DNA of 64,000 nt, taken from assembly GCA_018817595.1 (NCBI GenBank), contig JAHITU010000001.1:32109-96108 (forward strand). Direction: 5' to 3'. This document shows, in pieces, positions 90-61,219 of this stretch. The stretch comes from Patescibacteria group bacterium (lineage in GTDB: Bacteria > Patescibacteriota > Minisyncoccia > Phycocordibacterales > UBA12079). Made by a program: the position numbers and the translations under genes. The notes below the pieces were generated by a model, which was given only the letters and a program-made list of their open reading frames with translations, did no database searches and had not been told where the DNA came from. Each line of letters begins with the position of its first letter. Position 1 is the stretch's first letter.

Positions 90-97
90 ATTTTCTT

Positions 98-4397: not shown

Positions 4398-4401
4398 TTT
4401 T

Positions 4402-5451
4402 TTATTTAATTAAGTTTAATAATTGTTTTTTCATATTTGTCATCATTCTTTTAGAATTTAATTTGTTTTCTATAATCTGCCTTCCTTCGTAAGATAAATT
4501 TTCATACAAATCTTTATTATTAATGAGACTATTAATTTTTTCTCTCAAATCCTTAGGATTTTCAGTTTGATAAATTATTAATTTATCTTTTAAATTGTAA
4601 TCAATAATCCATTCTTTTAAATTAGTAACAACAGGCTTTCCACTAGCTAACGCTTCCAAAAGAACAGTTTGTCCAGAACAATCCGAACCGATTTTTTTAC
4701 TAGCCTTTGAAGGAACAACAATAATTTGTGCATTACTATAATAACTTCTTAACCTAATTTTATCCACACTATCTATTATTACTAGGTTCTTAGGAAAGTT
4801 TTTAATGTTTTTTAAATTTCTTTGCGGAGAAATTATAATAACTTTTTTATTTATCAAAGAAATAGCTTCAACCAAGGTTTTGAAGTCTCTACCAGCATCA
4901 AGTCCGACCGATAAAATATAACCTTGATGCAAATTATTTTTTTGATAAAAATCATTATCTACACCAAATTTAACCACTTTCATTTTACTGATTTTTAAAT
5001 TATTAGAAATCAAAAATCTCTCTTGAAAATTTGACAAATTAATAATAAAATCAGCGGATTTTATTATTTTCTTCCAAATAAAAAGTTTAACTTTATTACT
5101 TTTTGATAAAAGAGTGACTAAATTAATATTAAAAATTACCCATTTATTTTTACTTTTAAAAAAGAACCTTAAAAATAAAAGATCTAAATATTGATGTAAA
5201 ATAACGATATCATATTTTTCTAGATTTTTAATTAATTTTATCTTCTTATAGATTTTTAAAAAAAAGTTTCCCTGATAATATTCTCTTATATTTAAAAAAC
5301 AAAAATCAATCTCTGGATCATTCATCAAAAAGTTAAAACCATACAAAGAATTGCTTGGAGCCTCTCCTTTTTTCCATAAATCTAAGTATCTATTTTTGCC
5401 AGAAGCTAAATAAACAATTTTTATTGTTTTATTTTTCATTAATAATATCAA
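4402..5451 (-). CDS. Glycosyltransferase (GT4-like)
   Basis: 349 aa. The C-terminal GSDCSGQTVLLEALASGKPVV stretch is typical of GT-B group-1. Confidence 0.55.
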   Translation of the reverse strand: MILLMKNKTIKIVYLASGKNRYLDLWKKGEAPSNSLYGFNFLMNDPEIDFCFLNIREYYQGNFFLKIYKKIKLIKNLEKYDIVILHQYLDLLFLRFFFKSKNKWVIFNINLVTLLSKSNKVKLFIWKKIIKSADFIINLSNFQERFLISNNLKISKMKVVKFGVDNDFYQKNNLHQGYILSVGLDAGRDFKTLVEAISLINKKVIIISPQRNLKNIKNFPKNLVIIDSVDKIRLRSYYSNAQIIVVPSKASKKIGSDCSGQTVLLEALASGKPVVTNLKEWIIDYNLKDKLIIYQTENPKDLREKINSLINNKDLYENLSYEGRQIIENKLNSKRMMTNMKKQLLNLIK

Positions 5452-6472
5452 TCAGCTTTTCCCCTAAAATTTTAGGAGTACAGTTCTGAGTTAATTTATT
5501 ATACCCATTTTGAGATAAATTACCTCTCAAAATTGAATTTCCTTTTAATTCCAATATTGCCTTTGATAATTCTTCGGGATTTGCTCTAGGAATTAAATAT
5601 AAATCATTTTCATTAAACAATTCTTTTATAGCAGGAGTATCCGCAGTAATAACTGGTTTTCTACAAGCTATACATTCATAAACCTTATTCGGAATTACTT
5701 TTTGAGTCTTACCAGTATTCCCAAAAATACCTAAACAGATATCTGATTGGTTAATAAAATCACAAAGTTTTTCATAAGGAACATTTTCTTTAAAATTTAT
5801 ATTTTTTAAATCATAATTTCCATATTGTTTTTTAACACTAGAACCTATTATATTAAATTGAATATCTTTTTGCTTTTCCAAGATTTTTGCTGATTCTAAA
5901 ATATATTCAATCCCTTGTAGTGGAATATTTGTCCCATGAAAATGAACTACGAATTTATTACTTTCTTTTTTTTCTCTTGGATTAAAAATAGAAATATCTG
6001 TCCCGACAAAAAGTCTATAAAATTTTTCTCTTTTAATATTAAATTTTCTAACAAAATATTTTATGTTTTCGTTTGTATCTAATAAAATTTTGTTTGCAAA
6101 TTTACATGACAACCAATCTAGAAAACAATAATATTTAGCTTTCAAAGTTCCTTTTTTAGTGGTTTTTCTATCAAATACTTCAGATTCATAAATAGGAGCA
6201 AATAAATCAAAAACAATCTTTTTTCTAGTTAAAAAACGAGCAAGGATCATAGTTTGAAAACCTGGAAAAGCTACAAACAAAACATCATAGTGTTTTCTAA
6301 TTTCCCAATGTTTTTTGATTAAATCTAAGTATTTAAATAAACCATTTTTATCAGAACGACATTCTAATATTTTTACGCCATTTTGTTTTAAACCATTAAT
6401 TAAAACACAATTTCTTGCATATTCATGATTATAAATCCCAAAAAAACAAATTGTTAATTTTTTTTCTTCCAT
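5429..6472 (-). CDS. Glycosyltransferase family 4
   Basis: 347 aa with a GT-B C-terminal domain (ECIACRKPVITADTPAIKELF). Confidence 0.65.
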   Translation of the reverse strand: MEEKKLTICFFGIYNHEYARNCVLINGLKQNGVKILECRSDKNGLFKYLDLIKKHWEIRKHYDVLFVAFPGFQTMILARFLTRKKIVFDLFAPIYESEVFDRKTTKKGTLKAKYYCFLDWLSCKFANKILLDTNENIKYFVRKFNIKREKFYRLFVGTDISIFNPREKKESNKFVVHFHGTNIPLQGIEYILESAKILEKQKDIQFNIIGSSVKKQYGNYDLKNINFKENVPYEKLCDFINQSDICLGIFGNTGKTQKVIPNKVYECIACRKPVITADTPAIKELFNENDLYLIPRANPEELSKAILELKGNSILRGNLSQNGYNKLTQNCTPKILGEKLIDIINEK

Positions 6473-7557
6473 TATATTTTTTGATAAAGTCTTATTATTT
6501 TTTTTATCAAATTTTCTAAATTATGGTCATTCACAACAATATTTCTTAATCTTTTTCCTATTTTTATTTTATCTTCCTCAGATAATCTTATAATATTTTC
6601 TATTTTATTACTTAAATCATTAACACTCTTTGGTTTAAAAAATAATTTTTCTGAATATTCAGCAAAAACATTTTTAGAAGAATCATTTGATGATAAAACT
6701 AGTAAACCACACGACATTGCTTCTAAAATTGCCTTATCCAATGACCCTGTTTGACTTGTATTTACAAATAAATCGGCTCTATGCAAATAATCGACTATTT
6801 CTTTGTTTGGAACAGAACCTATAAAACTAATATTATTTTCTAAACCATAATCTTTGACTTTTTGTTTTAAATTTTCTAAATATTTTTTTTGGTCTGGTTT
6901 TCCTACGCCACCAATGATATCCAATTTAATTTTTAAACCTTTTTCTCTTAAAAATTTAATCGAGTTAATTAAGGTATCGTAATCCTTAATCGGTGAAATT
7001 CTTCCAATGGTAATTATACTAAAAATATCTTTTTTTAGGTTATCTTCTTTTTTATTAAATCTATTTACATCTATTCCATGACCAGTAATATTCAATTTTT
7101 TAGTTTCTAGACGAAATGATTCAGAAGTGGCTGAAAATATAATATGGGTTAATTTTTCTGCTAATCTCAGCTTTAAATCTACGGATTTATGCATATACCA
7201 TAAACCAATTTTTTTACCCCATAATCGCCACAAAAATCCTCCTAGAACGACGTATTCGGGATTCATGTGAACAAACACATTGTCGTAATTGTTTCTTTCT
7301 TGCCAGATGTATTTATAGAAGTTTGCTATGTATTCTTGTTTACTGGACTGCTTCGCTATGGCTCGCAGAGACGAAGTGTTTTTATCTTTACCCAAAGATA
7401 AAACCTTAACATTACGAGGTAAATCATGTTCACCCACACCTAAGGCAATCACTGTGATTTTCTCACAATGTTTAGCGAATTCAGCAATCCACCCATGGAA
7501 AAATCCGAGGATATCATCATTTTTATCTACTTTTTGTGTGAGTATTAATAATTTCAT
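6472..7557 (-). CDS. Glycosyltransferase family 4
   Basis: 361 aa. TSQTGSLDKAILEAMSCGLLVLSSN is the GT4 motif. It contains an in-frame copy of an intergenic repeat at 7343-7403 (see findings). Confidence 0.75.
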   Translation of the reverse strand: MKLLILTQKVDKNDDILGFFHGWIAEFAKHCEKITVIALGVGEHDLPRNVKVLSLGKDKNTSSLRAIAKQSSKQEYIANFYKYIWQERNNYDNVFVHMNPEYVVLGGFLWRLWGKKIGLWYMHKSVDLKLRLAEKLTHIIFSATSESFRLETKKLNITGHGIDVNRFNKKEDNLKKDIFSIITIGRISPIKDYDTLINSIKFLREKGLKIKLDIIGGVGKPDQKKYLENLKQKVKDYGLENNISFIGSVPNKEIVDYLHRADLFVNTSQTGSLDKAILEAMSCGLLVLSSNDSSKNVFAEYSEKLFFKPKSVNDLSNKIENIIRLSEEDKIKIGKRLRNIVVNDHNLENLIKKIIRLYQKI

Positions 7558-23640: not shown

Positions 23641-24212
23641 ACCTGTCAGAGTCGAACCTACCTACCCCTATGTACCAAAAGGCGTGGACAGGTAAGCTGA
23701 CGACCTATGGTTTACGATACCATTGCTCCCGCCTCATCGGCGAGTCGCCGATGAGGCGACTACCATTAAACTTCAAACTGAGCCCTCTGTCGGACTTGAA
23801 CCGACCACCTACGATTTACCCTGTTAGAGCTGAGGGCGAGAATTGAACTCGCGACCTACGGTTTACGATACCGTTGCTCTACCAACTGAGCTACCTCAGC
23901 TCTAACAGGGTAAACGATACTATTATCCCGCCTCATCGGCGGGTCGCCGATGAGGCGACTACCAGATGAGCTAAGAGGGCAAACTCGTCTTAATCCCCAC
24001 CGGCTGGAGTTATATTGAGCCCGAGGACGGGATTGAACCGACGACCTACACATTACCATTGTTGAAACCTCCTAAGGTCGGTTTCAACTCCACCAACTGA
24101 GCTATTTCAATTACCTTTTGAGCCAACAAACGGAATCGAACCGATGACCTCTCCAGTGGACCATTAAAACTTGCGAATCTCGTCTTAATCCCCACCGACT
24201 GGAGCTCGAATG
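23641..24212 (-). other. Array of tRNA-Thr-derived fragments and pseudo-tRNA pieces with interspersed GC-rich palindromes
   Basis: Three copies of a Thr(CGU) anticodon arm (GGTATCGTAAACC or variant). T-arm/acceptor 3' halves at about 23770-23826 and 24017-24050. A 35-nt duplicate of the tRNA-Thr(GGU) 3' end at 24121-24155. Palindromes at 23731-23757 and 23930-23956. Confidence 0.5.
23828..23900 (-). tRNA. tRNA-Thr (anticodon CGU)
   Basis: Reverse complement folds manually as acceptor GCTGAGG/CCTCAGC, D arm GCTC-AGTTGGTA-GAGC, anticodon arm ACGGT-AUCGUAA-ACCGT, T arm GCGAG-TTCAATT-CTCGC, discriminator U. Confidence 0.7.
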
Positions 24213-44130: not shown

Positions 44131-44682
44131 TTATTTCAATAAATTAATTTTTTCACCCATTTCAATCTGAAGCCTGTCTATACTATCGTGTTTAAATATT
44201 TTAGCCTGCACCTCTTCAGAAAACATTTCCTTTACGTCTTCACTATATAACGCTCCGTCTCGTGGAATTTTAAAACTAAATTTTTCTGGGTCGTAAAAAG
44301 AAAGTTCATTAGGATAATCTAACAATAAAGGAAGAGAAGCTCCACTTAATTTTTCAACTTCTCCATTTTCTAACATAATATATTCACTACAATAAACCCA
44401 AAGAGATAATGGGAATAATTCGTTTTCTAAATCCAGATTTTCAAAGACACAAATATTTGAACTTCCCTCTCTTGTTTGCCAAGCAACCTCTGGTAGAGTA
44501 ATTAAATATTTTTCTATTGTTTCTATTAACATAGGATTTAATCCTTTATTAATGTTTTCAATTTCTGTAATTTCTTGAGGTGTTTCAATAAATTCCGATT
44601 CATCAAACATTAAGAAATCAAAAAATTGAATTCCGAAGATGATTATTATTAGGGCTATTATTGTGTAGATTGTTTTTTTCAT
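44131..44682 (-). CDS. Hypothetical secreted or membrane-anchored protein
   Basis: 183 aa with an N-terminal TM helix. Confidence 0.4.
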   Translation of the reverse strand: MKKTIYTIIALIIIIFGIQFFDFLMFDESEFIETPQEITEIENINKGLNPMLIETIEKYLITLPEVAWQTREGSSNICVFENLDLENELFPLSLWVYCSEYIMLENGEVEKLSGASLPLLLDYPNELSFYDPEKFSFKIPRDGALYSEDVKEMFSEEVQAKIFKHDSIDRLQIEMGEKINLLK

Positions 44683-45207
44683 ATTAGTTCATAATATCAT
44701 AATTAATGGGTTTTTATAAGATATTGAAAGGGAGGGATTCGGTCACTCTCATGGATATTTATTTCACCAGCACTTTTGTAAAAAGTGCTGGGTATATTCG
44801 TTCGGTTCGAATTCCTCCCTCTCATTCATAGGTTGCTAATTTCAAATACCTTAATCGGTATTTGAAATTAGCAATGCGGAGAGGGAGGGATTCGGTCACG
44901 AATCACTAAGTAAAATTTTTCGCAAGCTCAAATTTTACTAAGTGTTCTCGACCCCGACTCGCCAGTATGAAAATTCACTGAAGTGAATTTTCTCTGGCTC
45001 CGTCCTTCGAATCCCTCCTCACTGACAAAACAATAATAAAAGACAACAACTTAGGTTGCTGTCTTTTATTATTGTTGCGGGCAACCTCGGTCTGGAACCG
45101 TAGGTTACCAAGCCCTGCAAGGCGGTTTTAAGCTTTTTAGAGCTACTAACCGAAGGATCCTCGTGCGCCTTTATTTTTTATATCTAATCAATTCTTCTAA
45201 TAATAAA

Positions 45208-45801
45208 TTAACCATAAACCTGTTTACATTGATCTGCAGTTAATGTAAATTTAGAAAGTTTCGGCATTACTTCTTGAGCTTTTATAGCATCATCAAAAAA
45301 ATCATTAACTTCTTTTAGAGTTATTTTAATTTCATCAATACTTATAGATGGGTTTCCTATATGATGAATTATTAAATTTCTTTTATTTAAAAACTTATGA
45401 CAACTACTTACAAAATCCTTTAAATATTGGTTTATTTCTTCGAGTTCATCTTCGTCGAGATCACCTTTTAATTTTCTTAAAGGAATCATTTTTTTAATAT
45501 TTTTAAGTATTTTTCGGGTATCTATTTTTTCTTCATAAAAGAACTGATCCTCTTTAGGTTTTTTGAATTCCTGTTTAGTTTCAAGAGCTTCTTTAACCCA
45601 TATTTGCTCTAATACTCTAAATACCTGAATGCAAGAAAATTCAAGTAATCCAGCTCTAATTGTAAGTCCACCTATTTGTTTTGCTAGATTTTCTGATTCT
45701 ATTGCAGTTTTTGCAATTTGAGTTAATTTATTTAATTTAGATATTTGATTCATTTTAATTAAATTATTTATTAATTTTAAAAAGTGACAAAAGTGACACA
45801 T
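45208..45801 (-). CDS. Hypothetical protein with a possible HEPN (Rx4HH) motif
   Basis: 197 aa. KRNLIIHH near the C-terminus. Last gene of the six-gene minus-strand operon. Confidence 0.35.
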   Translation of the reverse strand: MCHFCHFLKLINNLIKMNQISKLNKLTQIAKTAIESENLAKQIGGLTIRAGLLEFSCIQVFRVLEQIWVKEALETKQEFKKPKEDQFFYEEKIDTRKILKNIKKMIPLRKLKGDLDEDELEEINQYLKDFVSSCHKFLNKRNLIIHHIGNPSISIDEIKITLKEVNDFFDDAIKAQEVMPKLSKFTLTADQCKQVYG

Positions 45802-45834
45802 AATTGATATATAAAGTTACACTCCTCTGTAACT

Positions 45835-46764
45835 CTACGCTTCCCGTTTCTCAAACTCTTCTTCAAACTTCTTAAGTATTTCAGGTTGTAAGCAGTATTC
45901 TCTTATTTTTTTCTCCTGTTTACTACTTATCGTGTTTTTATATTTAGCATAATTTAGTAACTGTATATCTGGAAACGAGAATCTGGCATTAATCTTTTTG
46001 CCCCTGTGTATTACATGGAAATGTTTATCGTGGTCATCACTGTATACTCTCAATTCAAAACCCTGAAAGTCGGAAACTAATCCTTTGAGTAGTGGACCTC
46101 TCCATTCTAGAGCATCTTTGTATCGATCTTCCAACTCTTTTTCCTTCTTATCATTCTCGCTATAAAGATAATCTTCAAATGAGTCTTCTGATTTCTCGAG
46201 TATATCTAAAATTCCTACAGCAATACCAATATTTTTGCCGTGAATATGTTGCTCCGTGTCTAAAGATTTTTGTTTACGACTTTCATATATTTTTGATAAT
46301 TCCGCGTAATAATTTTTAAGATCATCTTCATATTGTGTGATTACTTTGCCAATCTTACCATGACGTTCTAGTATTTCCTGATCAGCACCTTTTTCCGGTT
46401 CCAGCTCTTTGACGATTATCGGTATAAAAATTGATTGTTCTTTTTCACTTTGACCACTCAGTTTAATGGTCATTCGTCCTTGTGACTCTTTTATAAAACC
46501 AACGTTAAATTGATTAAATTGAAATACTTCCTTAAAAGTGATATATCCAAATAATCTTGATAAAAGAGTGACTTTACCAACCGATATGTTTGAACCAAGT
46601 ATTGTTTGAGCTTTGATATCTATCAGTTCCAGACTGATGTCTCTAGAAAAACCGTACGGGGTTTTTAGCCAAGACAACGGGACATTCCCCGAGATGAGGA
46701 ATCTAGCGCCAACGTTTTGAAATGGTTTTGGATCCGATATGTAGATTTTATTTTCTCTTCGCAT
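45835..46764 (-). CDS. Protein with a C-terminal DUF4160-like domain
   Basis: 309 aa. VYSDDHDKHFHVIHRGKKINARFSF matches the DUF4160 signature (YSNDHxPPHxHV...F). The N-terminal 230 aa are unassigned. Confidence 0.45.
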   Translation of the reverse strand: MRRENKIYISDPKPFQNVGARFLISGNVPLSWLKTPYGFSRDISLELIDIKAQTILGSNISVGKVTLLSRLFGYITFKEVFQFNQFNVGFIKESQGRMTIKLSGQSEKEQSIFIPIIVKELEPEKGADQEILERHGKIGKVITQYEDDLKNYYAELSKIYESRKQKSLDTEQHIHGKNIGIAVGILDILEKSEDSFEDYLYSENDKKEKELEDRYKDALEWRGPLLKGLVSDFQGFELRVYSDDHDKHFHVIHRGKKINARFSFPDIQLLNYAKYKNTISSKQEKKIREYCLQPEILKKFEEEFEKREA

Positions 46765-46978
46765 TTTTAATTAACTTTACTAAATCTTCTTCTTTTTCAT
46801 AAACCCTAAATTTTCCAGACAAGACACCAAGTCTGTAATCTATACCTTCACTCATTAATCGCCAGTTTGTATCTTCTAATCTTTTCTTTATTAATTTCTT
46901 CAAATTATTTTTACTATCATATTCGTTTTCTGTTTTAGAGTCTTCGAGAGTAAAAGATAAAGAAACAATTCTATCCAT
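46748..46978 (-). CDS. Small hypothetical protein (76 aa) overlapping the DUF4160 gene
   Basis: 17-nt overlap with the downstream gene. No motif recognised. Confidence 0.35.
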   Translation of the reverse strand: MDRIVSLSFTLEDSKTENEYDSKNNLKKLIKKRLEDTNWRLMSEGIDYRLGVLSGKFRVYEKEEDLVKLIKNAKRK

Positions 46979-47050
46979 ATCAGGTTTATCAAAGATAAGA
47001 TTAGAATAATGAGTGTCTTTTAAAATTTCAACAACATGTTCTTTAAAACA

Positions 47051-48439
47051 CTACTCGTATTGAGAATGAATATTTTTTACATAATCTTCTGTTACTTGCA
47101 AAATTTCATCGAATGTTAGTATTTCAATATTTTGCAAAGAATTTCTTAGTTTAGTGAAGTCTCTTTTTAAACATTTACTTTTCACTTTATCTAGCTTACT
47201 TGTTGTTAATTTTTTATTGGAGGAAATAATAATAATTCCTCTTGGGTGATAAAGATTTTCTTCTTCTGTTATATTGGTAATTTTTTTCTCATCGGAGCTA
47301 TTTTGGAATCTTTTTTGAACTATAGCGTCCATGTAATTCATAGTTTGTATAATTGCCTTACTAAGTTCTGAAGAAAAACCAAAATTTTTATGAGAAGGAT
47401 CCCAGACAAGAGTGGTTTTTAAATGAGTTTTAATCTCAATAATATCAAGACCGTTATAATGATTTACACCAACAAAATCAGGATATTTTTTATCACCTTC
47501 AACATCTTTGAATTCAATTTTAGGATATATTTTTTTGTAAGAAAATACGAGATATAATAAATATTTCTCAAAAAATTTCTGCCACAAACTTTCAAGTTGG
47601 TTTATTTCTTCAACATTATCAACAATTTTTAATATTACATTTTTAGCCTTTTCCGTCTTCATGTCTGTCGTTCCCAGGCTAAGAATTTCTTTTCCGATTA
47701 TTATAATATCCTTCAGTTTTTCTTTTATAAAGTATTCGTCAAGAGATCTTAAAAAATCAGATGAAAAAACCTCGTCTTTAATTAATTTTTCTGTAAAATA
47801 TTCTAAATTATTTGTATCTTCTATATCTAGATAATTTATATAGTCTTTCTTTTCATTTTTATTTTTTAAATTAAAACGCTCCACCATAAAAGAAAAATCT
47901 CCTTTAGCAATAGTCGTTGTTTCTCTAGGCATCTTGTTTGTATATTTTAATTTTAATTTATTTATTAAGAATGTTTCTAGTCTATTTTTACTAGACTTTC
48001 CTTTTTTAAAAACCTCGTAAGAATCAGAGGCCATATCAATAAAAATCGACTCGGGGATTTGTATAGTTTTTTCTTTTGTTTTCCTTAATATTTTTTTGCC
48101 ACCGTAGATTATTTTTATCTTTTCAAAAGAGTTATTGATATCTAATATATTTTTTATATATTCAAACCAACTTATATCATATCCATTAATATAACGAACA
48201 TTTAAGACATCCCAAATATTAGTTTTATATGAAATTACCAAAGTTTGTCTATTATTCTTTTTTTCATAAATATTTTTTGACTTTTTATAGTAATAAAAAT
48301 CAATATAAACACTTTTATCATCAAAGATAACAATGTTACCAGCAGGGCAAGATATTTTTTCATCTTCAAAAACCATCTCTGGCCACTCTAGATTTTTAAA
48401 GAATTCAATAATTTTTTCTCTAGATTCTCTTGGGGTCAT
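47051..48439 (-). CDS. Putative PD-(D/E)xK nuclease (Shedu/DUF4263-like C-terminal domain)
   Basis: 462 aa. C-terminal KYPDFVGVNHYNGLDIIEIKTHLK shows a PD...(D/E)xK arrangement, then ...QTMNY. The N-terminal 330 aa have no recognisable motif. Confidence 0.45.
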   Translation of the reverse strand: MTPRESREKIIEFFKNLEWPEMVFEDEKISCPAGNIVIFDDKSVYIDFYYYKKSKNIYEKKNNRQTLVISYKTNIWDVLNVRYINGYDISWFEYIKNILDINNSFEKIKIIYGGKKILRKTKEKTIQIPESIFIDMASDSYEVFKKGKSSKNRLETFLINKLKLKYTNKMPRETTTIAKGDFSFMVERFNLKNKNEKKDYINYLDIEDTNNLEYFTEKLIKDEVFSSDFLRSLDEYFIKEKLKDIIIIGKEILSLGTTDMKTEKAKNVILKIVDNVEEINQLESLWQKFFEKYLLYLVFSYKKIYPKIEFKDVEGDKKYPDFVGVNHYNGLDIIEIKTHLKTTLVWDPSHKNFGFSSELSKAIIQTMNYMDAIVQKRFQNSSDEKKITNITEEENLYHPRGIIIISSNKKLTTSKLDKVKSKCLKRDFTKLRNSLQNIEILTFDEILQVTEDYVKNIHSQYE

Positions 48440-48649
48440 TTATTTTTTCTTACGATTATAAGGTGATTGATTTGTAGGTTTTAAGCTAACACCAAGATTC
48501 GATGCTTTGCTACTAACTCCTCCTACTGGTCGACCGAGTTTAAGTCCAATAACACGCGTTGGTGTATTTTTCCTCGCAAGTTCTTTTAATTGTTTTTCTT
48601 CAATAGGTGTCCATTTTTTACCTGCATTTTTTATATATTTTTTTACCAT
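48440..48649 (-). CDS. Small basic putative DNA-binding protein (69 aa)
   Basis: WTPIEEKQLKELARKNTPTRVIGLKLGR. Abuts its neighbours with 1-6 nt gaps in an operon. Confidence 0.4.
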   Translation of the reverse strand: MVKKYIKNAGKKWTPIEEKQLKELARKNTPTRVIGLKLGRPVGGVSSKASNLGVSLKPTNQSPYNRKKK

Positions 48650-48654
48650 GTTTT

Positions 48655-49305
48655 TTATAAGTTAGGATTTTTAATAATATCGACAACTTTACCACTAATA
48701 ATTAAATCACTTTCATCAACAAAAATAGGGTGATGTCCTTTTTCTGTTGATTCTGATACAAGAATAATTTGTTTATTTTCTTGATCTAGTTTATATTTTT
48801 TAATATTTGCAAGACCGTCTATTACTGAAACTACAACATCATTTGGTCTGGGTCTTGAATAATTACTATCTACAACAACATAATCACCATCTTCTATATT
48901 TTTACCGTTAACGTTTGTGTTATTCATTGAATTTCCACTAGCTATAATTACATATAATTCTTTTTTACGATGAGGTAACCTTTTTGAAGATATTTTAAGA
49001 TATCCTTCAATTCTTTCATTTGCGAAAATGGTTGCTGGACCACAATTTGCTGAACCAACTATAGGTAATGAAAAAATATTTGTTTTATTACCTATACCTA
49101 CAACACCTCTTTTTACGACGTTAATTATATTCTCACTAAGATTAACCCTAAGTAAACCTTTTTTATCAAGTTGTAATAAATGATGTTTAGCAATTTGAGG
49201 TTTATTTGATGCTCCTATAAGGTTAGCTATCTGCCTAAGACTCATTTTCCCTAAATTGGGATTATCTTGGGCAAGATTATAAAGTTTTTGTTGATATTCA
49301 TTCAT
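48655..49305 (-). CDS. LexA/CI-type S24 peptidase repressor
   Basis: 216 aa. Winged-helix N-terminus (MSLRQIANLIGASNKPQIAKHHLLQLDKKGLL). Catalytic Ser in ASGNSM and Lys in ANIKKY. Confidence 0.75.
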   Translation of the reverse strand: MNEYQQKLYNLAQDNPNLGKMSLRQIANLIGASNKPQIAKHHLLQLDKKGLLRVNLSENIINVVKRGVVGIGNKTNIFSLPIVGSANCGPATIFANERIEGYLKISSKRLPHRKKELYVIIASGNSMNNTNVNGKNIEDGDYVVVDSNYSRPRPNDVVVSVIDGLANIKKYKLDQENKQIILVSESTEKGHHPIFVDESDLIISGKVVDIIKNPNL

Positions 49306-49349
49306 ATGTGCCTATTATAACAAATTTAGTTAAATAATGCAAGTTTTTA

Positions 49350-49366
49350 TGTAAAGTATTTTTACA
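49350..49366. promoter_or_regulatory. Candidate operator palindrome TGTAAA-N5-TTTACA next to a TTGACA-N17-TAATAT promoter
   Basis: tgtaaagtatttttaca at 49350-49366. The -35 TTGACA is at 49370-49375 and the -10 TAATAT at 49393-49398, driving the + strand gene at 49443. Lies in the divergent lexA-like region. Confidence 0.4.
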
Positions 49367-49442
49367 CTCTTGACACATAAACTTCTTAAGAGTAATATTA
49401 AGCATAGTCGAATATTATTAATATTAATTAACATAAAATATT

Positions 49443-49673
49443 ATGTCAAAATACATTCTTAATCAAAATAAACAGGATTCTAAAAGTGGTGAAAATTATG
49501 AATTACACAACGAAGAAACTTGTCATCACTTACCTGATCCAGAGAATAGGCTTTTTGTAGGATATTTCGATAATTGTCACGATGCTAAAGCACGTGCAAA
49601 AGAAAGATACCCATTAATGAGTTCTGATATTGATGGTTGTTATCATTGTTGCAATTCTTGTCACAATGAATAA
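49443..49673 (+). CDS. Small Cys/His-rich protein (putative zinc-binding)
   Basis: 76 aa with 7 Cys and 5 His (CHHLPDPEN...CHDAKARAKERYPLMSSDIDGCYHCCNSCHNE). A sigma70-like promoter lies upstream. Confidence 0.45.
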   Translation: MSKYILNQNKQDSKSGENYELHNEETCHHLPDPENRLFVGYFDNCHDAKARAKERYPLMSSDIDGCYHCCNSCHNE

Positions 49674-49823
49674 TTAAAATTAAATATTGTAGTTATGTGA
49701 AGAAGTATTAAGCAGATTTTAAAAGTCTGCATGAAAATGTGTTTGAAAAAGTAACAACGCATTTTTATGCAGGCTTTTTGCTTTGTGTGAAATGCAATTA
49801 ATAGCATTAAACATAAAAATATA

Positions 49824-51116
49824 ATGAATAAGAAAAATTTATTGCCACTTGAATGGCATACAGAGAAATTATTAGTTAAAGATTTGAAATCTTGGAAAGA
49901 AAATCCGAGAACAATTACAAAAGAAAGTCTTGCAAAGTTAAAGGATAGAATTATACAACGAGGGATGCATGATGTAGTAAAAATAGATACAGATAATACA
50001 ATCTTATCAGGAAATCAAAGAAGAAAAGTGCTTATTGATATGGATATAAAAGAAGTAACCGCTCTTATCCCTAATCGACCTCTTACAAAAGAAGAAAGAG
50101 ATAAAGTCGCACTTGAAAGTAACCATAACGATGGTGAGTGGAATTTTGATGAATTAAAATCATTTGACTTAGACACTCTTATCGATGTAGGTTTTGATAA
50201 AACAAGGTTGGAAGATATATGGGACGAACATTTAGAAGTAACTAATGATGATTTTGATGAAGTCGCTGAATTAGAAAAAATAAAGGAAACAGATATTAAA
50301 TCAGGTGACATGTTTAAATTAGGAAAACACACTTTAATTTGTGGAAATGCTCTTGATCCAAATGTTGTTAACCGTCTTATGGGAGATGTTAGAGCTGATT
50401 TTATTGATGATGATTTACCTTTTAACATAGGTTTATCTTATGATAAAGGAGTGGGTAATAAATCGAGTTATGGTGGTACAACAGATGATAACAAAACAGA
50501 TGAAGAATATAGAATTTTTGTAAAAACAATTATACAAAATGCATTATCTGTTTCAAAACCAAATTGTCATTATATCTTTTGGTGCGACGAAAGATATGTC
50601 TGGTTATTTCAGACTCTATATAAAGAACTAGGAATTGATTCTAAAAGATTGCTTATTTGGTTGAAGAATAATAGTTCCCCGACACCCACTGTAGCATTCA
50701 ATAAAGTAACAGAATTTGCCGTATACGGTACTCGTGGAAAAGTTTATCTTTCTAAAAGTGTTAACAACTTACATGAAATTACTAACAAAGAATTTACAAC
50801 AGGTAATAGTTTATCTGAGGAAATTCTAGATCAGTTGAATATTTGGATAGTTAAGAGACTACCAAGTAACCAATATTCTCACCCTACGCAGAAGAATCCT
50901 GAATTACATGAAAAAGCGCTTCGTAGATGTACAAGATCAGGTGATGTTGTTTTGGATTTAACAGCAGGTTCAGGAAGTTTACTTTCGGCATGTGAACAAT
51001 TAAATCGTGTAGCGTATTTGTGTGAATTAGAACCAATATTTTGTCAGGTCATTATTAATCGTTTCCATGCTCAAACTGGAATTAAAGCAGTAAAAATAGA
51101 ACATGAAAAAAGATAG
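49824..51116 (+). CDS. ParB-like nuclease domain fused to an N6/N4 DNA methyltransferase
   Basis: 430 aa. N-terminal ParB box (SGNQRRKVL). Beta-class MTase order with motif IV-like DDDLPFN before motif I LDLTAGSGS. Confidence 0.7.
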   Translation: MNKKNLLPLEWHTEKLLVKDLKSWKENPRTITKESLAKLKDRIIQRGMHDVVKIDTDNTILSGNQRRKVLIDMDIKEVTALIPNRPLTKEERDKVALESNHNDGEWNFDELKSFDLDTLIDVGFDKTRLEDIWDEHLEVTNDDFDEVAELEKIKETDIKSGDMFKLGKHTLICGNALDPNVVNRLMGDVRADFIDDDLPFNIGLSYDKGVGNKSSYGGTTDDNKTDEEYRIFVKTIIQNALSVSKPNCHYIFWCDERYVWLFQTLYKELGIDSKRLLIWLKNNSSPTPTVAFNKVTEFAVYGTRGKVYLSKSVNNLHEITNKEFTTGNSLSEEILDQLNIWIVKRLPSNQYSHPTQKNPELHEKALRRCTRSGDVVLDLTAGSGSLLSACEQLNRVAYLCELEPIFCQVIINRFHAQTGIKAVKIEHEKR

Positions 51117-51519
51117 AGTCCAATCAAAACTTATCAAAGAACTAGAAAAAGTACCGATTGTGAGTGTTGCTTGTCGACGAAGTGGTGTATCACGTAATAG
51201 TTTTTATCGATGGTGTAATGAAGACCCTTATTTCGCATCACTAATAAATGACGCGTTGATAGAAGGAGAAGATTTTATAAATGACTTAAGTGAAAGTCAA
51301 TTAATAACCCTTATCAAAGAAAAAAAGTTTTCTGCGATTCGTTTTTGGCTAACACATCGTCATTCTAAATTCAAAAAGCAAGAGAGAGAAATATCTAAAA
51401 AAGACGATTTCGATTCCGAAATGGTTATTAAGACATTAGGATTAACCGATGAAGATTTCAAAGATGAGAATCTTAAAGAAACTACAAATAAAATTACTGA
51501 TCACCTATTAAATCTATAA
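51103..51519 (+). CDS. HTH DNA-binding protein (terminase-small-subunit-like)
   Basis: 138 aa. VSVACRRSGVSRNSFYRWCNEDPYF HTH. Overlaps the MTase gene by 14 nt. Confidence 0.45.
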   Translation: MKKDRVQSKLIKELEKVPIVSVACRRSGVSRNSFYRWCNEDPYFASLINDALIEGEDFINDLSESQLITLIKEKKFSAIRFWLTHRHSKFKKQEREISKKDDFDSEMVIKTLGLTDEDFKDENLKETTNKITDHLLNL

Positions 51520-51522
51520 AGA

Positions 51523-52047
51523 TTATTCAATCCATTCCATAACCTCTAGATAATCATATCCAGTTGCAAAATCAATATTTTGATTAAGGTTTTTAGCTGT
51601 TCCGTTAACTGCTTTAACTAAAGATTCTAACTTAGATTTATCTGTTATGTTTAGAGCTTCATATGAAGGAATAAGAAATATAGCTTTTCCTAAATTTGTA
51701 TCCATTATTCCAATATACCCATCTCCTTTTCTATTTTTGGTTGCATAAAATGGATATTCATAAATTTTTGGATCGTTATCAACTATCCTTGCAATAGTGT
51801 ATTGAACAAACACAGCAGATAAATTTTTATCTTTATCTATTATTGTATTTTCAAGTCTATTTAAACTAGTTGTATAAGGGTTAGGTTTAACAATTTGTTT
51901 TGTATTAATAACTTCCTCTGCTTTATTGTTGTCTGTTTTTTCAACAATATTTATTGTTTTACTAATTTCTTTTGTTGAATCATTAGATCCTAATAAATAG
52001 AGAAATGTAACAAAAACAAAAATCCCTAATAATATTTTTCTTCTCAT
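51523..52047 (-). CDS. Hypothetical secreted protein
   Basis: 174 aa with an N-terminal signal/TM segment (MRRKILLGIFVFVTFLYLLG). Confidence 0.4.
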   Translation of the reverse strand: MRRKILLGIFVFVTFLYLLGSNDSTKEISKTINIVEKTDNNKAEEVINTKQIVKPNPYTTSLNRLENTIIDKDKNLSAVFVQYTIARIVDNDPKIYEYPFYATKNRKGDGYIGIMDTNLGKAIFLIPSYEALNITDKSKLESLVKAVNGTAKNLNQNIDFATGYDYLEVMEWIE

Positions 52048-52050
52048 TTT

Positions 52051-52215
52051 TCGCGTAGGTTTTAATTAATAATGATCTAGTATAGTAAAAACAAAAATGG
52101 CTACACAAGACCGACGGCAACCCTCTTTCGAAGATTACCCTGCCTCCCTTTCGGGTGCAGACCTACGCGAATAAGTGCCGGCTTATGTAGCCGTTTTTAT
52201 TCGCGTAGGTTTTTT
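52051..52215. repeat. GC-enriched inverted/direct-repeat cluster upstream of the serine recombinase
   Basis: Direct repeat ttcgcgtaggtttt at 52051 and 52201. Inverted repeats cctacgcgaa/ttcgcgtagg and ggctacacaag/cttatgtagcc. Confidence 0.5.
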
Positions 52216-52317
52216 ATTTGTACCATGCTAAATGTAAATTTAGTTTAGGTATTGTCAATTGATATAATACAGTATCCTTAATGTATTATCTACTCATTAT
52301 ATCGCAGTTCATTTGTT

Positions 52318-53715
52318 TTGCTAAGGAAAGTTACCAACACGTTGTCGACATCAAAATGCTTAGCAAAAGACTCTTTCTCTGTCATTAATATAGGTATGGA
52401 AACGAATACATTTTCACAACAAACTCAATCGGCAATTATTCCAGATATTAAAATGAGATATTGTTTATACGCAAGAAAAAGTACGGAATCAGATGAACGG
52501 CAAGCTTTATCCATAGAATCACAAGTTAAAGAAATGTTACAGATAGCCGAAAGAGAAGGTCTTGAAATTGTTGATATTAGAAGAGAATCTAAATCAGCTA
52601 AAGATTCAAATAATAGACCTGTTTTTAAAGAATTACTTCTTGATATATCAAAAGAACGATTCAATGCTATCCTCACATGGGCACCTGATAGATTATCTAG
52701 AAATGCAGGTGATCTTGGTTCGGTTGTAGATTTAATGGATGCTAAAAAACTTTTAGGTATTCGTACTTACGGACAGACATTTTCAAATTCTCCAAATGAA
52801 AAATTTCTTTTAATGATTCTTTGTTCTCAAGCAAAATTAGAAAATGACAATAGAGGTATAAATGTAAAAAGAGGATTAAGAACCAGATGTGAAATGGGAT
52901 TATGGCCAACTTGTCCACCCACAGGATATTTCAAAGAAAAAAGAATGGATAGGAAATGTGAGTGTATCATAGATGAAAAAAGAGCTCCTGTTATAAAACA
53001 AATTTTTGAAAAAGTAGCTTACGAAAAATGGTCTGGTAGAAAACTTTATCATTGGCTTAGATTTGATTTAAACTTCAGAACAGAATTAGGAAAGAAACAT
53101 TTAAGTTTAGGAAATATTTATCGATTATTAGAAAACACATTCTATTATGGAACTTTTGAATATCCTAGAGGTAGTGGTAATTGGTATCAAGGGAAACATA
53201 AACCAATTATTACAAAAGAATTGTTTAATTTAGTTCAAGAACAAGTAAAAAATTCTCAATTGGTTAGAAAAGAAAATATAGAATTTGCATTTACTAAAAT
53301 TATGAAATGTGGATTATGTGGTTCTGGAATTTCGGCAAGTGAGAAATTTAAAAAGTTAAAAAATGGAGATTTTAACCGTCATATATATTATGGTTGTACT
53401 AAAGCAAAAGATAAAAATTGTAAATGTGGTTATATCAATGAAACTGATTTGATTAAACAACTACAAAAACTTGTAGATAAATTAGATTTTAAAAAAACTC
53501 TTATAGAAGATAAAATTAAATTAGAAATTAAGAGATTTAAAAAATTTCAAAATATGATTGTTGGTAAAAGTAATGAAATCAAAGTAAGTGATGTAGATAT
53601 AAAAAATTATATAAAATTTATTTTGAAAGAGGGGGAAAATCAAGAAAAAAGAGAATTAATGAAATGTTTTAAATCAAGAATAAAGATAGTTAAGAAAAGT
53701 ATAAATATTAATTAA
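52318..53715 (+). CDS. Large serine recombinase (resolvase/integrase family)
   Basis: The catalytic N-domain YARKSTESDERQALSIESQ contains the nucleophile Ser. A recombinase domain and a Cys-rich zinc ribbon (CGLCGS...C...C) follow. The true start is probably internal (M27 or M46, near 52396 or 52453). Confidence 0.8.
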   Translation: MLRKVTNTLSTSKCLAKDSFSVINIGMETNTFSQQTQSAIIPDIKMRYCLYARKSTESDERQALSIESQVKEMLQIAEREGLEIVDIRRESKSAKDSNNRPVFKELLLDISKERFNAILTWAPDRLSRNAGDLGSVVDLMDAKKLLGIRTYGQTFSNSPNEKFLLMILCSQAKLENDNRGINVKRGLRTRCEMGLWPTCPPTGYFKEKRMDRKCECIIDEKRAPVIKQIFEKVAYEKWSGRKLYHWLRFDLNFRTELGKKHLSLGNIYRLLENTFYYGTFEYPRGSGNWYQGKHKPIITKELFNLVQEQVKNSQLVRKENIEFAFTKIMKCGLCGSGISASEKFKKLKNGDFNRHIYYGCTKAKDKNCKCGYINETDLIKQLQKLVDKLDFKKTLIEDKIKLEIKRFKKFQNMIVGKSNEIKVSDVDIKNYIKFILKEGENQEKRELMKCFKSRIKIVKKSININ

Positions 53716-55151
53716 ACATTTAATATAGATTGTAAACGCTCTTCTAGAATTGAATCAAAATTTTTATCTGATTCTTTTCGTAATTCAATCATATCTATTA
53801 AATCTTTATCAGATAGTGGAAATATAATTACTCCATGGCGAAGATAGTGTTGTTGAGAACGTTTAATATCATTATTAGAAATATCCTTTCTTTGTATTAA
53901 AAATATAAATTCTCTACGATCTTTTAGTGTATAACCTAAGGCTTGATTAAATTCCTTATTTCCTACTTTTGTTTTATCAAAATTTTTTGCTTCGATGATT
54001 AATGAGGCAACAATAATTTTAGTTTTCTCTATAACTTTAAAAAAATTTGTTTTTGATGCGTTCAAAAAGTTTACATCATATCTATAAGTATCACCAAATG
54101 AACGAGTTTCTATTTTACCTCTTAATAAATTATCCCCATAAAGAGCTTGGAAAATTTTCATTAACATCTGACTATATTCAGCAGACATTTCACTTCCTGG
54201 AATAATATTTTCTATTTCTTTTATATATTTATCCCAATTTATTTTAGGTTTTCTCGGTCTACGTTTGTTCTCAAATTTATGTGGATTATCTACGTATTTA
54301 TTAATTAATTTTGGTCTTTCTTCTGAAAGTTTTCTTGCTGCAGAAATAACTCCTTTAACTTTAAATTGACGAAGTAATTTTTCTTCTATATCTTTTATTA
54401 ATACTTTAGGTTCTTTTCCTATACTACCAAAAGAATTTATACGCGATATTTCTTCATGTTGAAGTATATATTTAAGAAAACCTTTATAAAATTCATCTGT
54501 AGATAAAATTGGCATTTTTCTAACTATATGCCTAGGTACTAAAAGCCTATACTCTCCATTATTAAAATAAGGTAGATTAACTTTTAGTCTAGGTTTCCAT
54601 TCTTTTGAATTAAAATCAAAACCTCTTGGTAAAGGAACAGTTATTGTTTTTAAATCATAAGTTTCAACTTGTTCTTTTGTGTATTTAATTAAGTTATCAA
54701 GAGCAAATCCTGCAGTCATATCAGATATAAGATCTGGGCCAAAACCTTCTATTTGAATAACTAATTCAGCCAAGGCTTTCAACCCAACTTTTTTTATATC
54801 AGGATTATCAAAAATAGTTTCCTTAAGAAGTAATGCTCTTTTTCCTGCTGTTCCTGAACCTTCTGTTCCTTTTACACAGTGACCAAATCCTAACTCCTGA
54901 GCTTCTGGAAAATGTAAAAATTCTAGTAGTTTAGCAGTATTAATCTTTTTATTTTTATATTTTTCAAGTAAATCATTAAAATACCAAAACATCATAGCCT
55001 GAACTTCATTCCAGATTTTATCATCTGTTTCGTACATTAAATAAACATCTAAATATACCGGGATATCTTTATCCTTATCAGGAAAAATAAAATCAACTTC
55101 ATATTGTTTATACTCAGATTGAATGTCATCAAGTGTTTTTAGTTTTTTCAT
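53712..55151 (-). CDS. Hypothetical protein with a possible C-terminal PD-(D/E)xK-like motif
   Basis: 479 aa. ...YDVNF...IIVASLIIEAKNF (D...ExK). Convergent with the recombinase gene. Confidence 0.35.
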   Translation of the reverse strand: MKKLKTLDDIQSEYKQYEVDFIFPDKDKDIPVYLDVYLMYETDDKIWNEVQAMMFWYFNDLLEKYKNKKINTAKLLEFLHFPEAQELGFGHCVKGTEGSGTAGKRALLLKETIFDNPDIKKVGLKALAELVIQIEGFGPDLISDMTAGFALDNLIKYTKEQVETYDLKTITVPLPRGFDFNSKEWKPRLKVNLPYFNNGEYRLLVPRHIVRKMPILSTDEFYKGFLKYILQHEEISRINSFGSIGKEPKVLIKDIEEKLLRQFKVKGVISAARKLSEERPKLINKYVDNPHKFENKRRPRKPKINWDKYIKEIENIIPGSEMSAEYSQMLMKIFQALYGDNLLRGKIETRSFGDTYRYDVNFLNASKTNFFKVIEKTKIIVASLIIEAKNFDKTKVGNKEFNQALGYTLKDRREFIFLIQRKDISNNDIKRSQQHYLRHGVIIFPLSDKDLIDMIELRKESDKNFDSILEERLQSILNV

Positions 55152-55324
55152 TTGATTTTTTATACAATTATATTAATTAATAATACAAAATATAATCATA
55201 TAACACCATAGATAATTTAAAATATATAAATTTAAATGAATAATAATAAATAAAAAACACCTAATTAGGTGTTTTTTATTTATTAAAGCTATTTCGTGCT
55301 AGCACGATGTTGCGGAGAGGGAGG

Positions 55325-55411
55325 GATTCGAACCCTCGGAGGTTTTAACACCTCGGCACGTTAGCAGTGTGCTGGTTTAAGCCACTCACCCACCTCTCCG
55401 TGTTTTTATTT
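55325..55411 (-). tRNA. tRNA-Ser (anticodon GCU), long variable arm
   Basis: Acceptor GGAGAGG/CCTCTCC, D stem GGT/ACC, anticodon loop CUGCUAA, variable arm GAGGT...ACCTC, T arm GAGGG-TTCGAAT-CCCTC. The 3' end is the element's direct-repeat core. Confidence 0.7.
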
Positions 55412-55544
55412 AATTGTAATCGGTCGGGATTCGGTCTCAAATCAAGACATCTTCGTATTTGTATTACCCCTATAAGTTAACATATTTTAAACTTTTTTTC
55501 TATATAAAAAACCAAGGCGAAGTGTTTCCATCACTTCGCCTATT

Positions 55545-61092: not shown

Positions 61093-61146
61093 GAAGCACA
61101 AAATACTTAAAACCAAAGCTAAACGCTTTGGTTTTAAGTATTTTTG

Positions 61147-61219
61147 TGCGTGTGCCAGGACTCGAACCTGGGACCACAGAGGTATAAGCTCTGCGCTCTA
61201 CCAACTGAGCTACACACGC
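61147..61219 (-). tRNA. tRNA-Ile (anticodon UAU)
   Basis: Acceptor GCGTGTG/CACACGC, D arm GCTC-AGTTGGTA-GAGC, anticodon arm CAGAG-CUUAUAC-CTCTG, T arm CCCAG-GTTCGAGT-CCTGG. Followed by the hairpin aaccaaagc-taaac-gctttggtt. Confidence 0.65.

Follow-up and report, generated by a model that had tools for sequence, protein, structure and literature searches.

The window analysed here, a stretch of 64,000 nucleotides of contig JAHITU010000001.1 (assembly GCA_018817595.1) of a Patescibacteria group bacterium, contains an island of genes beside the gene of tRNA-Ser(GCU). A 20-nt sequence (20-mer) from the 3' end of this tRNA is repeated near the opposite end of the island, which raises the question of how the island was inserted and whether the 20-mer served as its attachment site. 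The segment 45081-55307 is probably an integrative element of about 10.2 kb, inserted by its own large serine recombinase (LSR) at the last bases of tRNA-Ser(GCU) in the genome of an uncultured representative of Patescibacteria (Paceibacterota-like). The 20-mer is probably not the crossover site of the LSR.

Genes of tRNA in the window were called by ARAGORN and Rfam, and proteins were assigned by Pfam, phrog families and PADLOC models. A search with the LSR yielded 2 IMG/VR loci and 80 metagenome loci with 61-88% identity, and a scan with the flank protein PilM yielded 29 loci from metagenome-assembled genomes of Patescibacteria/Paceibacterota; the fetched loci of relatives are designated by L-numbers. 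The window is identical to one ENA metagenome contig and three Logan contigs. The Logan assembly of SRR6514274 has the island on a contig of its own, with breaks at hairpins (44909-44924, 55273) and inside the tRNA (55351); as a sign of excision these breaks are uninformative, neither repeat coinciding with a break.

The tRNA gene and the two boundaries of the element are represented by the following features:

55312-55399, minus strand: gene of tRNA-Ser(GCU), the probable integration target, 3' end toward the island (ARAGORN; Rfam tRNA, 52 bits)
55311-55330, plus strand: tRNA-borne copy of the 20-mer, exact match
55308-55315, plus strand: 8-bp direct repeat TGTTGCGG (in tRNA sense CCGCAACA), proximal copy, proposed LSR core in the junction attL
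55294-55307, no strand assigned: F1, perfect 14-bp palindrome TCGTGCTAGCACGA beside the tRNA, element-borne P' arm, conserved in relatives
45077-45169, minus strand: Y, conserved non-coding block of 93 nt at the integrase-distal end (P arm), ending in ...GGTTGCCCGC, 13 copies
45073-45080, plus strand: 8-bp direct repeat TGTTGCGG, distal copy, proposed LSR core in the junction attR

There are exactly two copies of the 20-mer TGCGGAGAGGGAGGGATTCG in the window, at 44875-44894 and 55311-55330, both on the plus strand, and its significance was assessed by 100 shuffles, none of which contained a match. It consists of the last 19 nt of tRNA-Ser and one additional base; read in tRNA sense, it begins with the CG of the T-loop TTCGAA, continues along the 3' strand of the acceptor and ends in ...CTCTCCGCA (...CCGCA). 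In the distal copy, identity ends exactly at the CG of the T-loop (GTGAC/CGAAT against GGGTT/CGAAT). Further partial copies of the tRNA 3' end were found at 44730 (plus), 44808 (minus) and 45008 (minus), as well as a weak one on the upstream side of the tRNA, at 55422; the 12-mer core gave 7 matches with no more than 2 mismatches, against 1.3 expected. The first-pass annotation of this DNA, made from the letters alone, thus described the repeat well: two copies in the same orientation, one of them being the 3' end of a minus-strand tRNA-Ser, divergence of the distal copy within the T loop, and three more partial copies within 44727-45023 are all confirmed, but the two copies had been placed at 44872-44891 and 55323-55342, which is off by 3 and 12 nt.

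In tRNA-Ser(GCU), the anticodon stem begins with an A.C mismatch at its base, and the Rfam tRNA score of this gene (52 bits) is the lowest of the window. The tRNA-Ser of L121 (3191-3278) is nearly identical and has the same mismatch, which is therefore not damage caused by the insertion.

The ends of the element were defined by comparison of the family. The window has three copies of the 8-bp repeat, a number also reached in one of 100 shuffles; since the repeat is weak when taken alone, the boundary is drawn from the relatives. The sequence AACATCGTGCTAGCACGAGG is located next to the tRNA in nearly all loci (about 30) regardless of isoacceptor (Ser GCU, UGA, GGA and CGA, and Asp), and a variant of F1 is located behind tRNA-Gln and tRNA-Glu. 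Behind tRNA-Ser of LSR-free relatives F1 is absent, and the 3' flanks are unrelated. Being kept across tRNA types and absent where no LSR is present, F1 is accordingly element-borne, namely, the P' arm. Block Y, GCGCACGAGGATC ... ACGGTTCCAGCCCGAGGTAGCCCGC, which includes the distal block GCACGAGGATC, is carried at the distal end of the element in 13 loci, in about eight of which it stands directly against an unrelated, terminator-like flank.

In 11 relatives the stretch common to attL and attR is limited to CCGC(A..), 4-9 nt, the element-side arms F1 and Y being conserved and the outer flanks unrelated among relatives. The same ends are retained in two LSR-less mini-elements: one in L007, of 1.06 kb, arranged as tRNA, F1, one gene and Y, and one in L063, of 0.6 kb, located in tandem behind a full element with an attP-like junction Y-CCGCA-F1. 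Both keep exactly F1 and Y as their ends.

Two other assignments for these sequences were rejected. Crossover at the centre of the F1 palindrome is ruled out, as both halves of F1 are element-borne and F1 is absent from the distal junctions. Block Y is not a small RNA: no covariation was found, the consensus fold has only -5 kcal/mol, and conservation takes the form of sequence blocks.

The region beyond Y, from which the distal 20-mer derives, consists of two gene-less units, designated X:

44875-45076, minus strand: X unit 1, built from a terminator hairpin (45029-45076), the tRNA 3' end in inverted copy, a structured core, then GTGAC followed by the direct 20-mer
44727-44874, minus strand: X unit 2, shorter and degenerate, comprising hairpin H (44833-44874), an inverted copy of the tRNA 3' end, an inner hairpin, GTGAC and a degenerate copy (44727-44746)

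The junctions attL and attR of an LSR are hybrid sites with a very short core. The arrangements Y-core-flank and tRNA-core-F1 fit such hybrid sites, and the arrangement X-20-mer-hairpin, which contains a B half-site, resembles attB and not attR. In the proposed scheme, attP would have Y as its P arm and F1 as its P' arm, with the tRNA 3' end serving as the B half-site; crossover within CCGC(A) would give rise to the 8-bp direct repeat, and the tRNA would essentially stay host-encoded and not be rebuilt. The element would have entered between the tRNA and two X units already arrayed behind it, each ending in a copy of the last 20 nt of the tRNA, and the 20-nt direct repeat would exist because the element was inserted between the tRNA and a resident X unit that copies the tRNA end. 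The resulting layout in tRNA sense may be read as tRNA ...CTCTCCGCAACA / F1 - terminator - DUF8370/PDC-M36A cargo - LSR - LOOT RNA - TerS-like gene - ParB-methylase - cro-like/CI-like repressor - Shedu and other cargo - Y ...GCCCGCAACA / terminator hairpin. The junctions predicted from this scheme are ...CGGTTCCAGACCGAGGTTGCCCGCAACATCGTGCTAGCACGAAATAGC... for attP and ...GGGTTCGAATCCCTCCCTCTCCGCAACAATAATAAAAGACAGCAACC... for attB.

The first-pass annotation had taken the 20-nt repeat for the attachment core that regenerates the tRNA 3' end. In this model the element would be about 10.4 kb long (44895-55310), crossover would take place in the T loop, and attP would be X-20-mer-F1, supplying a new 3' end of the tRNA; the predicted junctions are ...CTTAGTGATTCGTGACCGAATCCCTCCCTCTCCGCAACATCGTGC... 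(attP) and ...CTCCCTCTCCGCATTGCTAATTTCAAATACC... (attB). It explains why 20/20 identity begins exactly at the CG of the T-loop, and it agrees with the same 20-nt register with another sequence in L086, with contiguous X-20-mer-F1 in L008, L013 and L035, and with the position of X just inside the repeat in the window, L086, L057, L070 and L078. However, at least eight related elements have neither X nor the 20-mer at the distal end and stop at Y with a core of 4-9 nt, and the minimal derivatives keep Y and not X. X units are located behind tRNA-Ser without LSR or F1 (L121, L122), as well as behind tRNA-Ile (L007), and X-20-mer-hairpin, having a B-type half-site, does not qualify as an attR of an LSR. 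An exact search of metagenome and genome collections for the empty site of this model (AATTAGCAA + 20-mer + AACCCTCGG), that is, its predicted attB, gave no match, which is a weak negative. The repeat is therefore an improbable attachment core; insertion by the LSR at CCGC(A) is preferred.

A number of observations weigh against insertion by the LSR at this core. The statistics of the 8-bp repeat given above are among them. By inspection, dyad symmetry is only loose (CCCGAGGTAGC in Y against GCTAGCACGAGG in F1), and the clear dyad symmetry of canonical LSR half-sites was not found in the reconstructed attP. The conserved P arm of 93 nt exceeds the textbook attP of LSRs. The minimal core CCGC does not single out a crossover dinucleotide and contains palindromic dinucleotides (CG, GC), which alone would not impose orientation. 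The LSR gene lies away from both att sites, with 1.6 kb of cargo between it and the tRNA, and no recombination directionality factor was identified. The predicted attP junction Y/F1 was found neither in IMG/VR nor in the fetched loci, and no empty site of the same species was found. In composition the island is no outlier, either in tetranucleotides (maximum z = 1.1) or in GC, so that the comparison of k-mers with the flanks, offered as a check by the first-pass annotation, shows no contrast. An X unit is located between Y and the outer flank in 5 of 13 loci, and in a variant of the scheme X-20-mer may be part of the element.

Genome analysis of the island and its distal flank showed the presence of the following genes and one structured RNA:

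53712-55151, minus strand: cargo gene, DUF8370, PADLOC candidate defence protein PDC-M36A (E=1.6e-27; phrog_27295)
52396-53715, plus strand: LSR, 439 aa from ATG 52396 (Pfam; phrog_95 integrase, E=4.5e-61)
52116-52251, minus strand: LOOT RNA, Rfam RF03000 (60.0 bits, gathering threshold 46.4; full-length match 1-121)
51103-51519, plus strand: TerS-like helix-turn-helix (HTH) protein (phrog_4044 terminase small subunit, E=3.9e-7)
49824-51116, plus strand: ParB-like domain fused to an N6/N4 DNA methyltransferase, conserved core gene (family matches)
49443-49673: divergent gene of 76 aa opposite the repressor (phrog_4298)
48655-49305, minus strand: CI/LexA-like S24 repressor (family matches)
48440-48649: small HTH gene downstream of the repressor
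47051-48439, minus strand: Shedu (SduA) defence protein, cargo of the distal slot (Pfam SduA_C PF14082, E=2.9e-19; nine PADLOC SduA models)
45208-46978, minus strand: three open reading frames (ORFs; 197, 309 and 76 aa) in the distal cargo slot, no family matches
44131-44682, minus strand: flanking host gene h183, 183 aa, located just downstream of tRNA-Ser in island-free relatives

The LSR contains the domains Resolvase PF00239, Recombinase PF07508 and Zn_ribbon_recom PF13408, all above cut-offs, and its ORF is extendable to TTG 52318. Residues 25-411 align to the SPbeta integrase structures 9dxd/9dxh (phmmer), and the catalytic serine, read in the translation, is located inside the Resolvase match in the motif YARKSTESDERQ, of the R-x-S-T-x-x-Q type. 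Among the LSRs of 50,697 phage records, none reached 30% identity. No match to Phage_integrase, i.e., tyrosine integrase, was obtained for any of the 12 island ORFs. Genes for capsid, portal and tail proteins were likewise not found among the island ORFs by Pfam and phrog. The initial description of the gene content (large serine recombinase, ParB-methyltransferase fusion, LexA/CI-like repressor, HTH and nuclease-like genes, no capsid or tail genes) agrees with these family matches, the nuclease-like gene being that of Shedu.

Elements of the family share a gene order: S24 repressor, then ParB-methyltransferase and the TerS-like gene, in some cases followed by a gene of the large terminase subunit TerL, then the LSR on the plus strand, variable cargo of 1-10 kb and a tRNA on the minus strand. 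Wherever the sequence past the LSR suffices, a minus-strand tRNA is located 1-10 kb downstream with its 3' end toward the LSR. The TerS-like gene adjoins ParB-methyltransferase in about 45 loci, and TerL is next to it in L086, L041 and L071. Neighbour-joining ordering placed the LSR of the window in a clade of 22 loci, all located at tRNA-Ser (GCU, UGA, GGA, CGA) with F1; other clades are located at tRNA-Glu(CTC), at tRNA-Gln(CTG), and at tRNA-Ser with a different flank motif, TATCGGA..GACCCGAG. The phylogeny of the LSR thus predicts the type of tRNA and the flanking motif.

In the fully delimited elements examined no other recombinase was found, and the LSR is accordingly the only candidate integrase. 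The opposite possibility, that the LSR is cargo (for example, a resolvase or invertase) and the island was placed by an unseen recombinase acting in trans, is suggested by the cargo that separates the LSR gene from both ends and by tRNA targeting, which is typical of tyrosine integrases (PMC4383910). It is very hard to reconcile with the covariation of LSR clades with tRNA type and P' motif, with L117, where the LSR lies less than 1 kb from the tRNA, with the lack of another recombinase in the delimited elements and with the short core, which fits an LSR; this possibility is regarded as extremely unlikely.

The size of family elements is 10-19 kb, and that of the window (10.2 kb) is the smallest intact member. 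Genes of defence systems occupy two variable slots, one of them between the LSR and the tRNA, which in the window contain PDC-M36A (LSR-tRNA slot) and Shedu (distal slot); the slots of relatives contain type I and type III restriction-modification (R-M), C5-methylase/MutH-like R-M, a gene of SMODS (CBASS-type) nucleotidyltransferase, DUF4238 and Shedu. Homologs of the 76-aa ORF of the distal slot are present in L036, L037, L049, L088 and L092. Capsid, tail and replication genes were not found in the family members examined, and in particular no primase/helicase replication domain is present in the element of the window, L086, L091 and L071. The core combines a switch of the lysogeny type with TerS, to which relatives add TerL. 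Given the absence of capsid and tail genes, a defence island of phage-satellite-like or cryptic-prophage-derived character is the most likely nature of the family, and its transfer would depend on a helper.

The LOOT RNA is located about 300 nt or less upstream of the LSR gene and divergent from it in six elements, namely, that of the window and five relatives (L040 7095-7210; L045 4500-4627; L048 9720-9844; L063 9727-9855; L091 9725-9857). In L041 it is located (4952-5070) about 5 kb upstream of the LSR. It is absent from ten other scanned family members. No function or genomic context of this RNA was found in the searched literature.

Relatives free of the island were found at the level of synteny. 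In L120, the order is flavodoxin fragment, tRNA-Ser(GCU), 193 nt, h183 homolog, ComF and PilM, without LSR and F1. In L121 and L122, tRNA-Ser is followed by 670 nt of non-coding DNA (two X units) and the h183 homolog, also without LSR and F1. The empty site expected in the first-pass annotation, tRNA-Ser followed by the gene at 44131-44682, is thereby found in relatives, at a distance of 193 or 670 nt; these relatives are other species (h183 identity 67-73%), so the arrangement is synteny-level and not strain-level proof of insertion. The order RecG, tRNA-Ser(GCU), ComF and PilM is kept in about 20 related loci without such an island, with the tRNA tens of bases from ComF; accordingly, the tRNA is native, and the approximately 11 kb between tRNA and ComF in the window are extra. 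Together with the location of the same family at tRNA 3' ends in dozens of metagenomic contigs, these empty sites bear out a site-specific integrative element at the 3' end of tRNA-Ser(GCU), as first supposed.

The element may also be a fixed, decaying remnant of a prophage or satellite, integrated once and now inherited vertically without mobility. TerL of the relatives is missing here, composition is fully ameliorated, the circular junction was not found in IMG/VR and the fetched loci, and LSR-less remnants of the family exist. On the other hand, the LSR ORF is intact with all domains, as are both conserved arms, the identical 8-bp core and the pair of repressor and cro-like gene, and two independent assemblies contain the island with the same gene order and with identical LSR and flank proteins. 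An immobile remnant is considered unlikely, and the element may be mobile at present.

The X units were analysed as the source of the 20-mer. Unit 1 matches the covariance model at 44883-45019 (126 bits) and unit 2 at 44730-44819 (27 bits), and about 18 copies were found by this model in the fetched loci. Homologs are present in L008, L013, L035, L078, L086, L118 and L121-123. Hairpin H of unit 2 is homologous to the hairpin directly behind the tRNA in L008, L013 and L035, where the order is tRNA, hairpin, X, 20-mer and then an F1 remnant. Two units are located behind the tRNA in L121/L122 without F1, and one in L118. Seven units have a common fold, comprising a closing helix of the inverted against the direct tRNA end, the helix GGTCG:TGACC and a variable hairpin capped by GCGAAGC, in which 12 pairs stay paired through double-sided changes. 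The array folded as single-stranded DNA gives z = -15. The region gave no match to Rfam, permissive E-values over 44500-45400 yielding only chance miRNA-like hairpins, and the pattern of the X core was not found in IMG/VR. In the Xstart/T3 complementarity matrix the Ser units are weakly discriminating because the ends of Ser tRNAs are similar; the Ile and L078 units are the informative cases.

The first-pass annotation had seen here a cluster of nested att-like remnants left by repeated integration and decay. These are instead two copies of a conserved, structured, gene-less unit that also occurs behind tRNAs free of the LSR island, and not random products of decay; repeated integration at this junction is supported in a general sense. 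The hairpin CCAGCAC..GTGCTGG, compared there to an anticodon arm, does exist (44769-44793), but it is the inner hairpin of X unit 2, and its interpretation as a tRNA relic is ruled out.

Each X unit is bounded by copies of a tRNA 3' end and contains no recombination genes; candidates for its nature are non-autonomous T-loop insertions, tRNA-like small RNAs and single-strand origins. The narrower possibility, concerning the nested remnants alone, that the units are no integration scars and instead host or selfish genes of structured RNA (such as a tRNA-like small RNA processed from the tRNA transcript) or origins of single-stranded DNA, is in keeping with the three-helix structure and its double-sided changes, the single-stranded fold, the closing helix made of an inverted and a direct copy of the local tRNA 3' end (Ser or Ile), the recurrence of the GCGAAGC mini-hairpin at the apex and the location of units in tRNA sense directly behind the tRNA terminator. 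Against it stand the lack of an Rfam match, the resemblance of tandem copies between direct tRNA-3' repeats to insertions and the patchy distribution among close relatives; on balance it is rather doubtful, though somewhat less so than an immobile remnant.

Two linked readings of the locus, one for the LSR and one for the X units, are put forward tentatively, with slightly more confidence than the RNA or origin reading of X but still at less than even chances. The LSRs may be the first well-populated clade whose natural attB is the extreme 3' end of a tRNA (Ser; in sister clades Gln and Glu), with a long P arm and LOOT RNA. The X units may be undescribed gene-less modules of 100-240 nt, in which inverted and direct copies of the local tRNA 3' end are joined at the palindromic T-loop TTCGAA and which multiply in tandem behind tRNA genes of the candidate phyla radiation (CPR); such a unit could be a mobile element of a new type, site-specific and non-autonomous, or else a small RNA mimicking tRNA or a single-strand origin.

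Several further observations concern X units and tRNA copies. In L007, a unit (3052-3242) is located behind tRNA-Ile(UAU) (2978-3051), after its native terminator hairpin, and its end copies match tRNA-Ile; the window has the same tRNA-Ile and hairpin (61093-61145) and no X unit there. The core type of this L007 unit is joined to tRNA-Ser ends in L121/L122. The tRNA-Ile(UAU) of the window (61146-61219, minus strand) is conserved beside RecG in L007, L008, L017-L024 and L035. The contig of L118 begins (1-366) inside a palindrome exceeding 150 nt, in which oppositely oriented copies of the first half of an X unit flank a terminator hairpin. Within 24000-24212 of the window (minus strand), tRNA-Thr(GGU) has a direct copy of its last ~35 nt (~24119-24153) located ~60 nt downstream, which is followed by a degenerate tRNA-like sequence uncalled by ARAGORN; it is another att-like scar in the tRNA cluster. 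A similar direct copy of the 3' half is present at tRNA-Ile of L008.

Other observations concern the surroundings of tRNA-Ser. At 55418-55438, ~20 nt upstream of the tRNA 5' end, there is a degenerate sequence GAGAC/CGAATCCC, like the end of an X unit and the start of the tRNA 3' end, which may be left over from an earlier arrangement or from an inversion. Relative to ComF/PilM, tRNA-Ser is co-directional in L007 (9046-9133) and most genomes, and convergent in the window, L008 (8455-8542), L023 and L120-122, so that the tRNA with the downstream array has been inverted at least once. Crossover at the CG of the T-loop with inversion, considered for the inverted copies and the flipped tRNA, was rejected; its product would destroy the tRNA, and no support was found. 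In L013 (2480-2860), L120 (9560-9650) and L008 (8380-8450), the intact gene of tRNA-Ser is preceded by repeated partial copies of its 5' part (GGAGAGTTGCCAGAGTGG...), a hint of recombination, or of an element of a second kind, acting at the 5' side of this tRNA. A piece of 89 nt (terminator hairpin and TATAAT-like box) is located after the 20-mer in L086 (1719-1807) and directly after Y in L065 (1927-2015); since the tRNAs (GCU and CGA) and all sequence beyond differ, this flank piece is itself mobile or carried along. Finally, positions 1-7000 of the window have the most deviant tetranucleotides (z = 2.0-2.5) and the lowest GC (0.245), exceeding the island, and may be another foreign segment.

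The main interest of the locus is the specificity of LSRs for tRNA, together with the X units. Integration at tRNA genes is regarded as characteristic of tyrosine integrases, and here a clade of LSRs is located at tRNA 3' ends in dozens of independent loci; as switches of target track the protein tree and both arms are defined, the question is testable with synthetic attP and attB. Serine integrases are preferred tools for insertion of large DNA, and a family specific to tRNA ends could offer landing sites present in many genomes. CPR/Patescibacteria, with tiny genomes and few known mobile elements, gain Shedu, R-M and the CBASS-type SMODS gene via small satellite-like islands, and the orphan LOOT RNA gains a genomic context. 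No paper joining Patescibacteria, prophage and serine recombinase was found in the literature search.

Known serine-integrase elements are located inside ORFs or at intergenic sites, are usually disruptive and have cores of 2-8 bp (PMC8092301, PMC5704250). Only 14 of 297 serine-integrase elements were found at t(m)RNA genes, being called previously unreported and wanting experimental proof (Mageeney et al., PMC7192596), and according to the Islander paper, targeting of tRNA genes is known for tyrosine integrases alone (PMC4383910). With LSR prophages and elements (phiC31, Bxb1, A118, TP901-1, SPbeta, Tn4451, SCCmec Ccr) the element of the window shares the three-domain recombinase, alignable to that of SPbeta, the very short attL/attR core, conserved element arms and a variable host side; it differs in that a whole clade is located at the extreme tRNA 3' end and in the P arm of ~93 nt, above the textbook attP. 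Islander-type islands of tyrosine integrases are similar in the intact tRNA with a displaced direct 3' copy, the integrase-bearing island between them and the tRNA locus as a hotspot with accreted remnants, but here a tyrosine integrase is absent, the element has only 8 bp in common with the tRNA junction, and the 20-nt repeat is part of a gene-less neighbour.

Satellites similar to phage-inducible chromosomal islands (PICIs) and tycheposons resemble the family in size (10-19 kb), tRNA site, the combination of integrase, repressor and TerS-like gene without capsid and tail genes, modular cargo slots and tandem arrays with partial tRNA copies. The satellite-type gene set is present here (LSR as integrase, S24 repressor, TerS-like gene, no structural genes), relatives adding only TerL, and two family relatives in IMG/VR are weak evidence for packaging by a helper phage. 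The differences are the LSR, the CPR host, the lack of a primase/helicase module among the elements searched and a helper dependence that is only presumed; in tycheposon-type elements of marine cyanobacteria, tyrosine recombinases were found in 910 of 937 (bioRxiv 10.1101/2020.12.28.424599). For LOOT RNA (RF03000), matches above the gathering threshold are present in the window and six related loci, as in the known family, with the distinction that it is here repeatedly adjacent to the LSR gene and divergent from it. Cis-mobilizable elements (CIMEs), att-flanked derivatives of integrative elements that lack genes and accumulate in tandem, are comparable to the X units and F1...Y minis, which are gene-less or single-gene, bounded by att-like repeats and in tandem with a full element. 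X units differ from CIMEs by a conserved covarying fold, an internal inverted copy of the tRNA end and the lack of F1 and Y arms; having neither arm, they are not simple deletion derivatives of the LSR element, and genuine deletion derivatives are found in the minis of L007 and L063. Accordingly, the element of the window belongs to the class of LSR integrative elements, with an unusual and consistent target.

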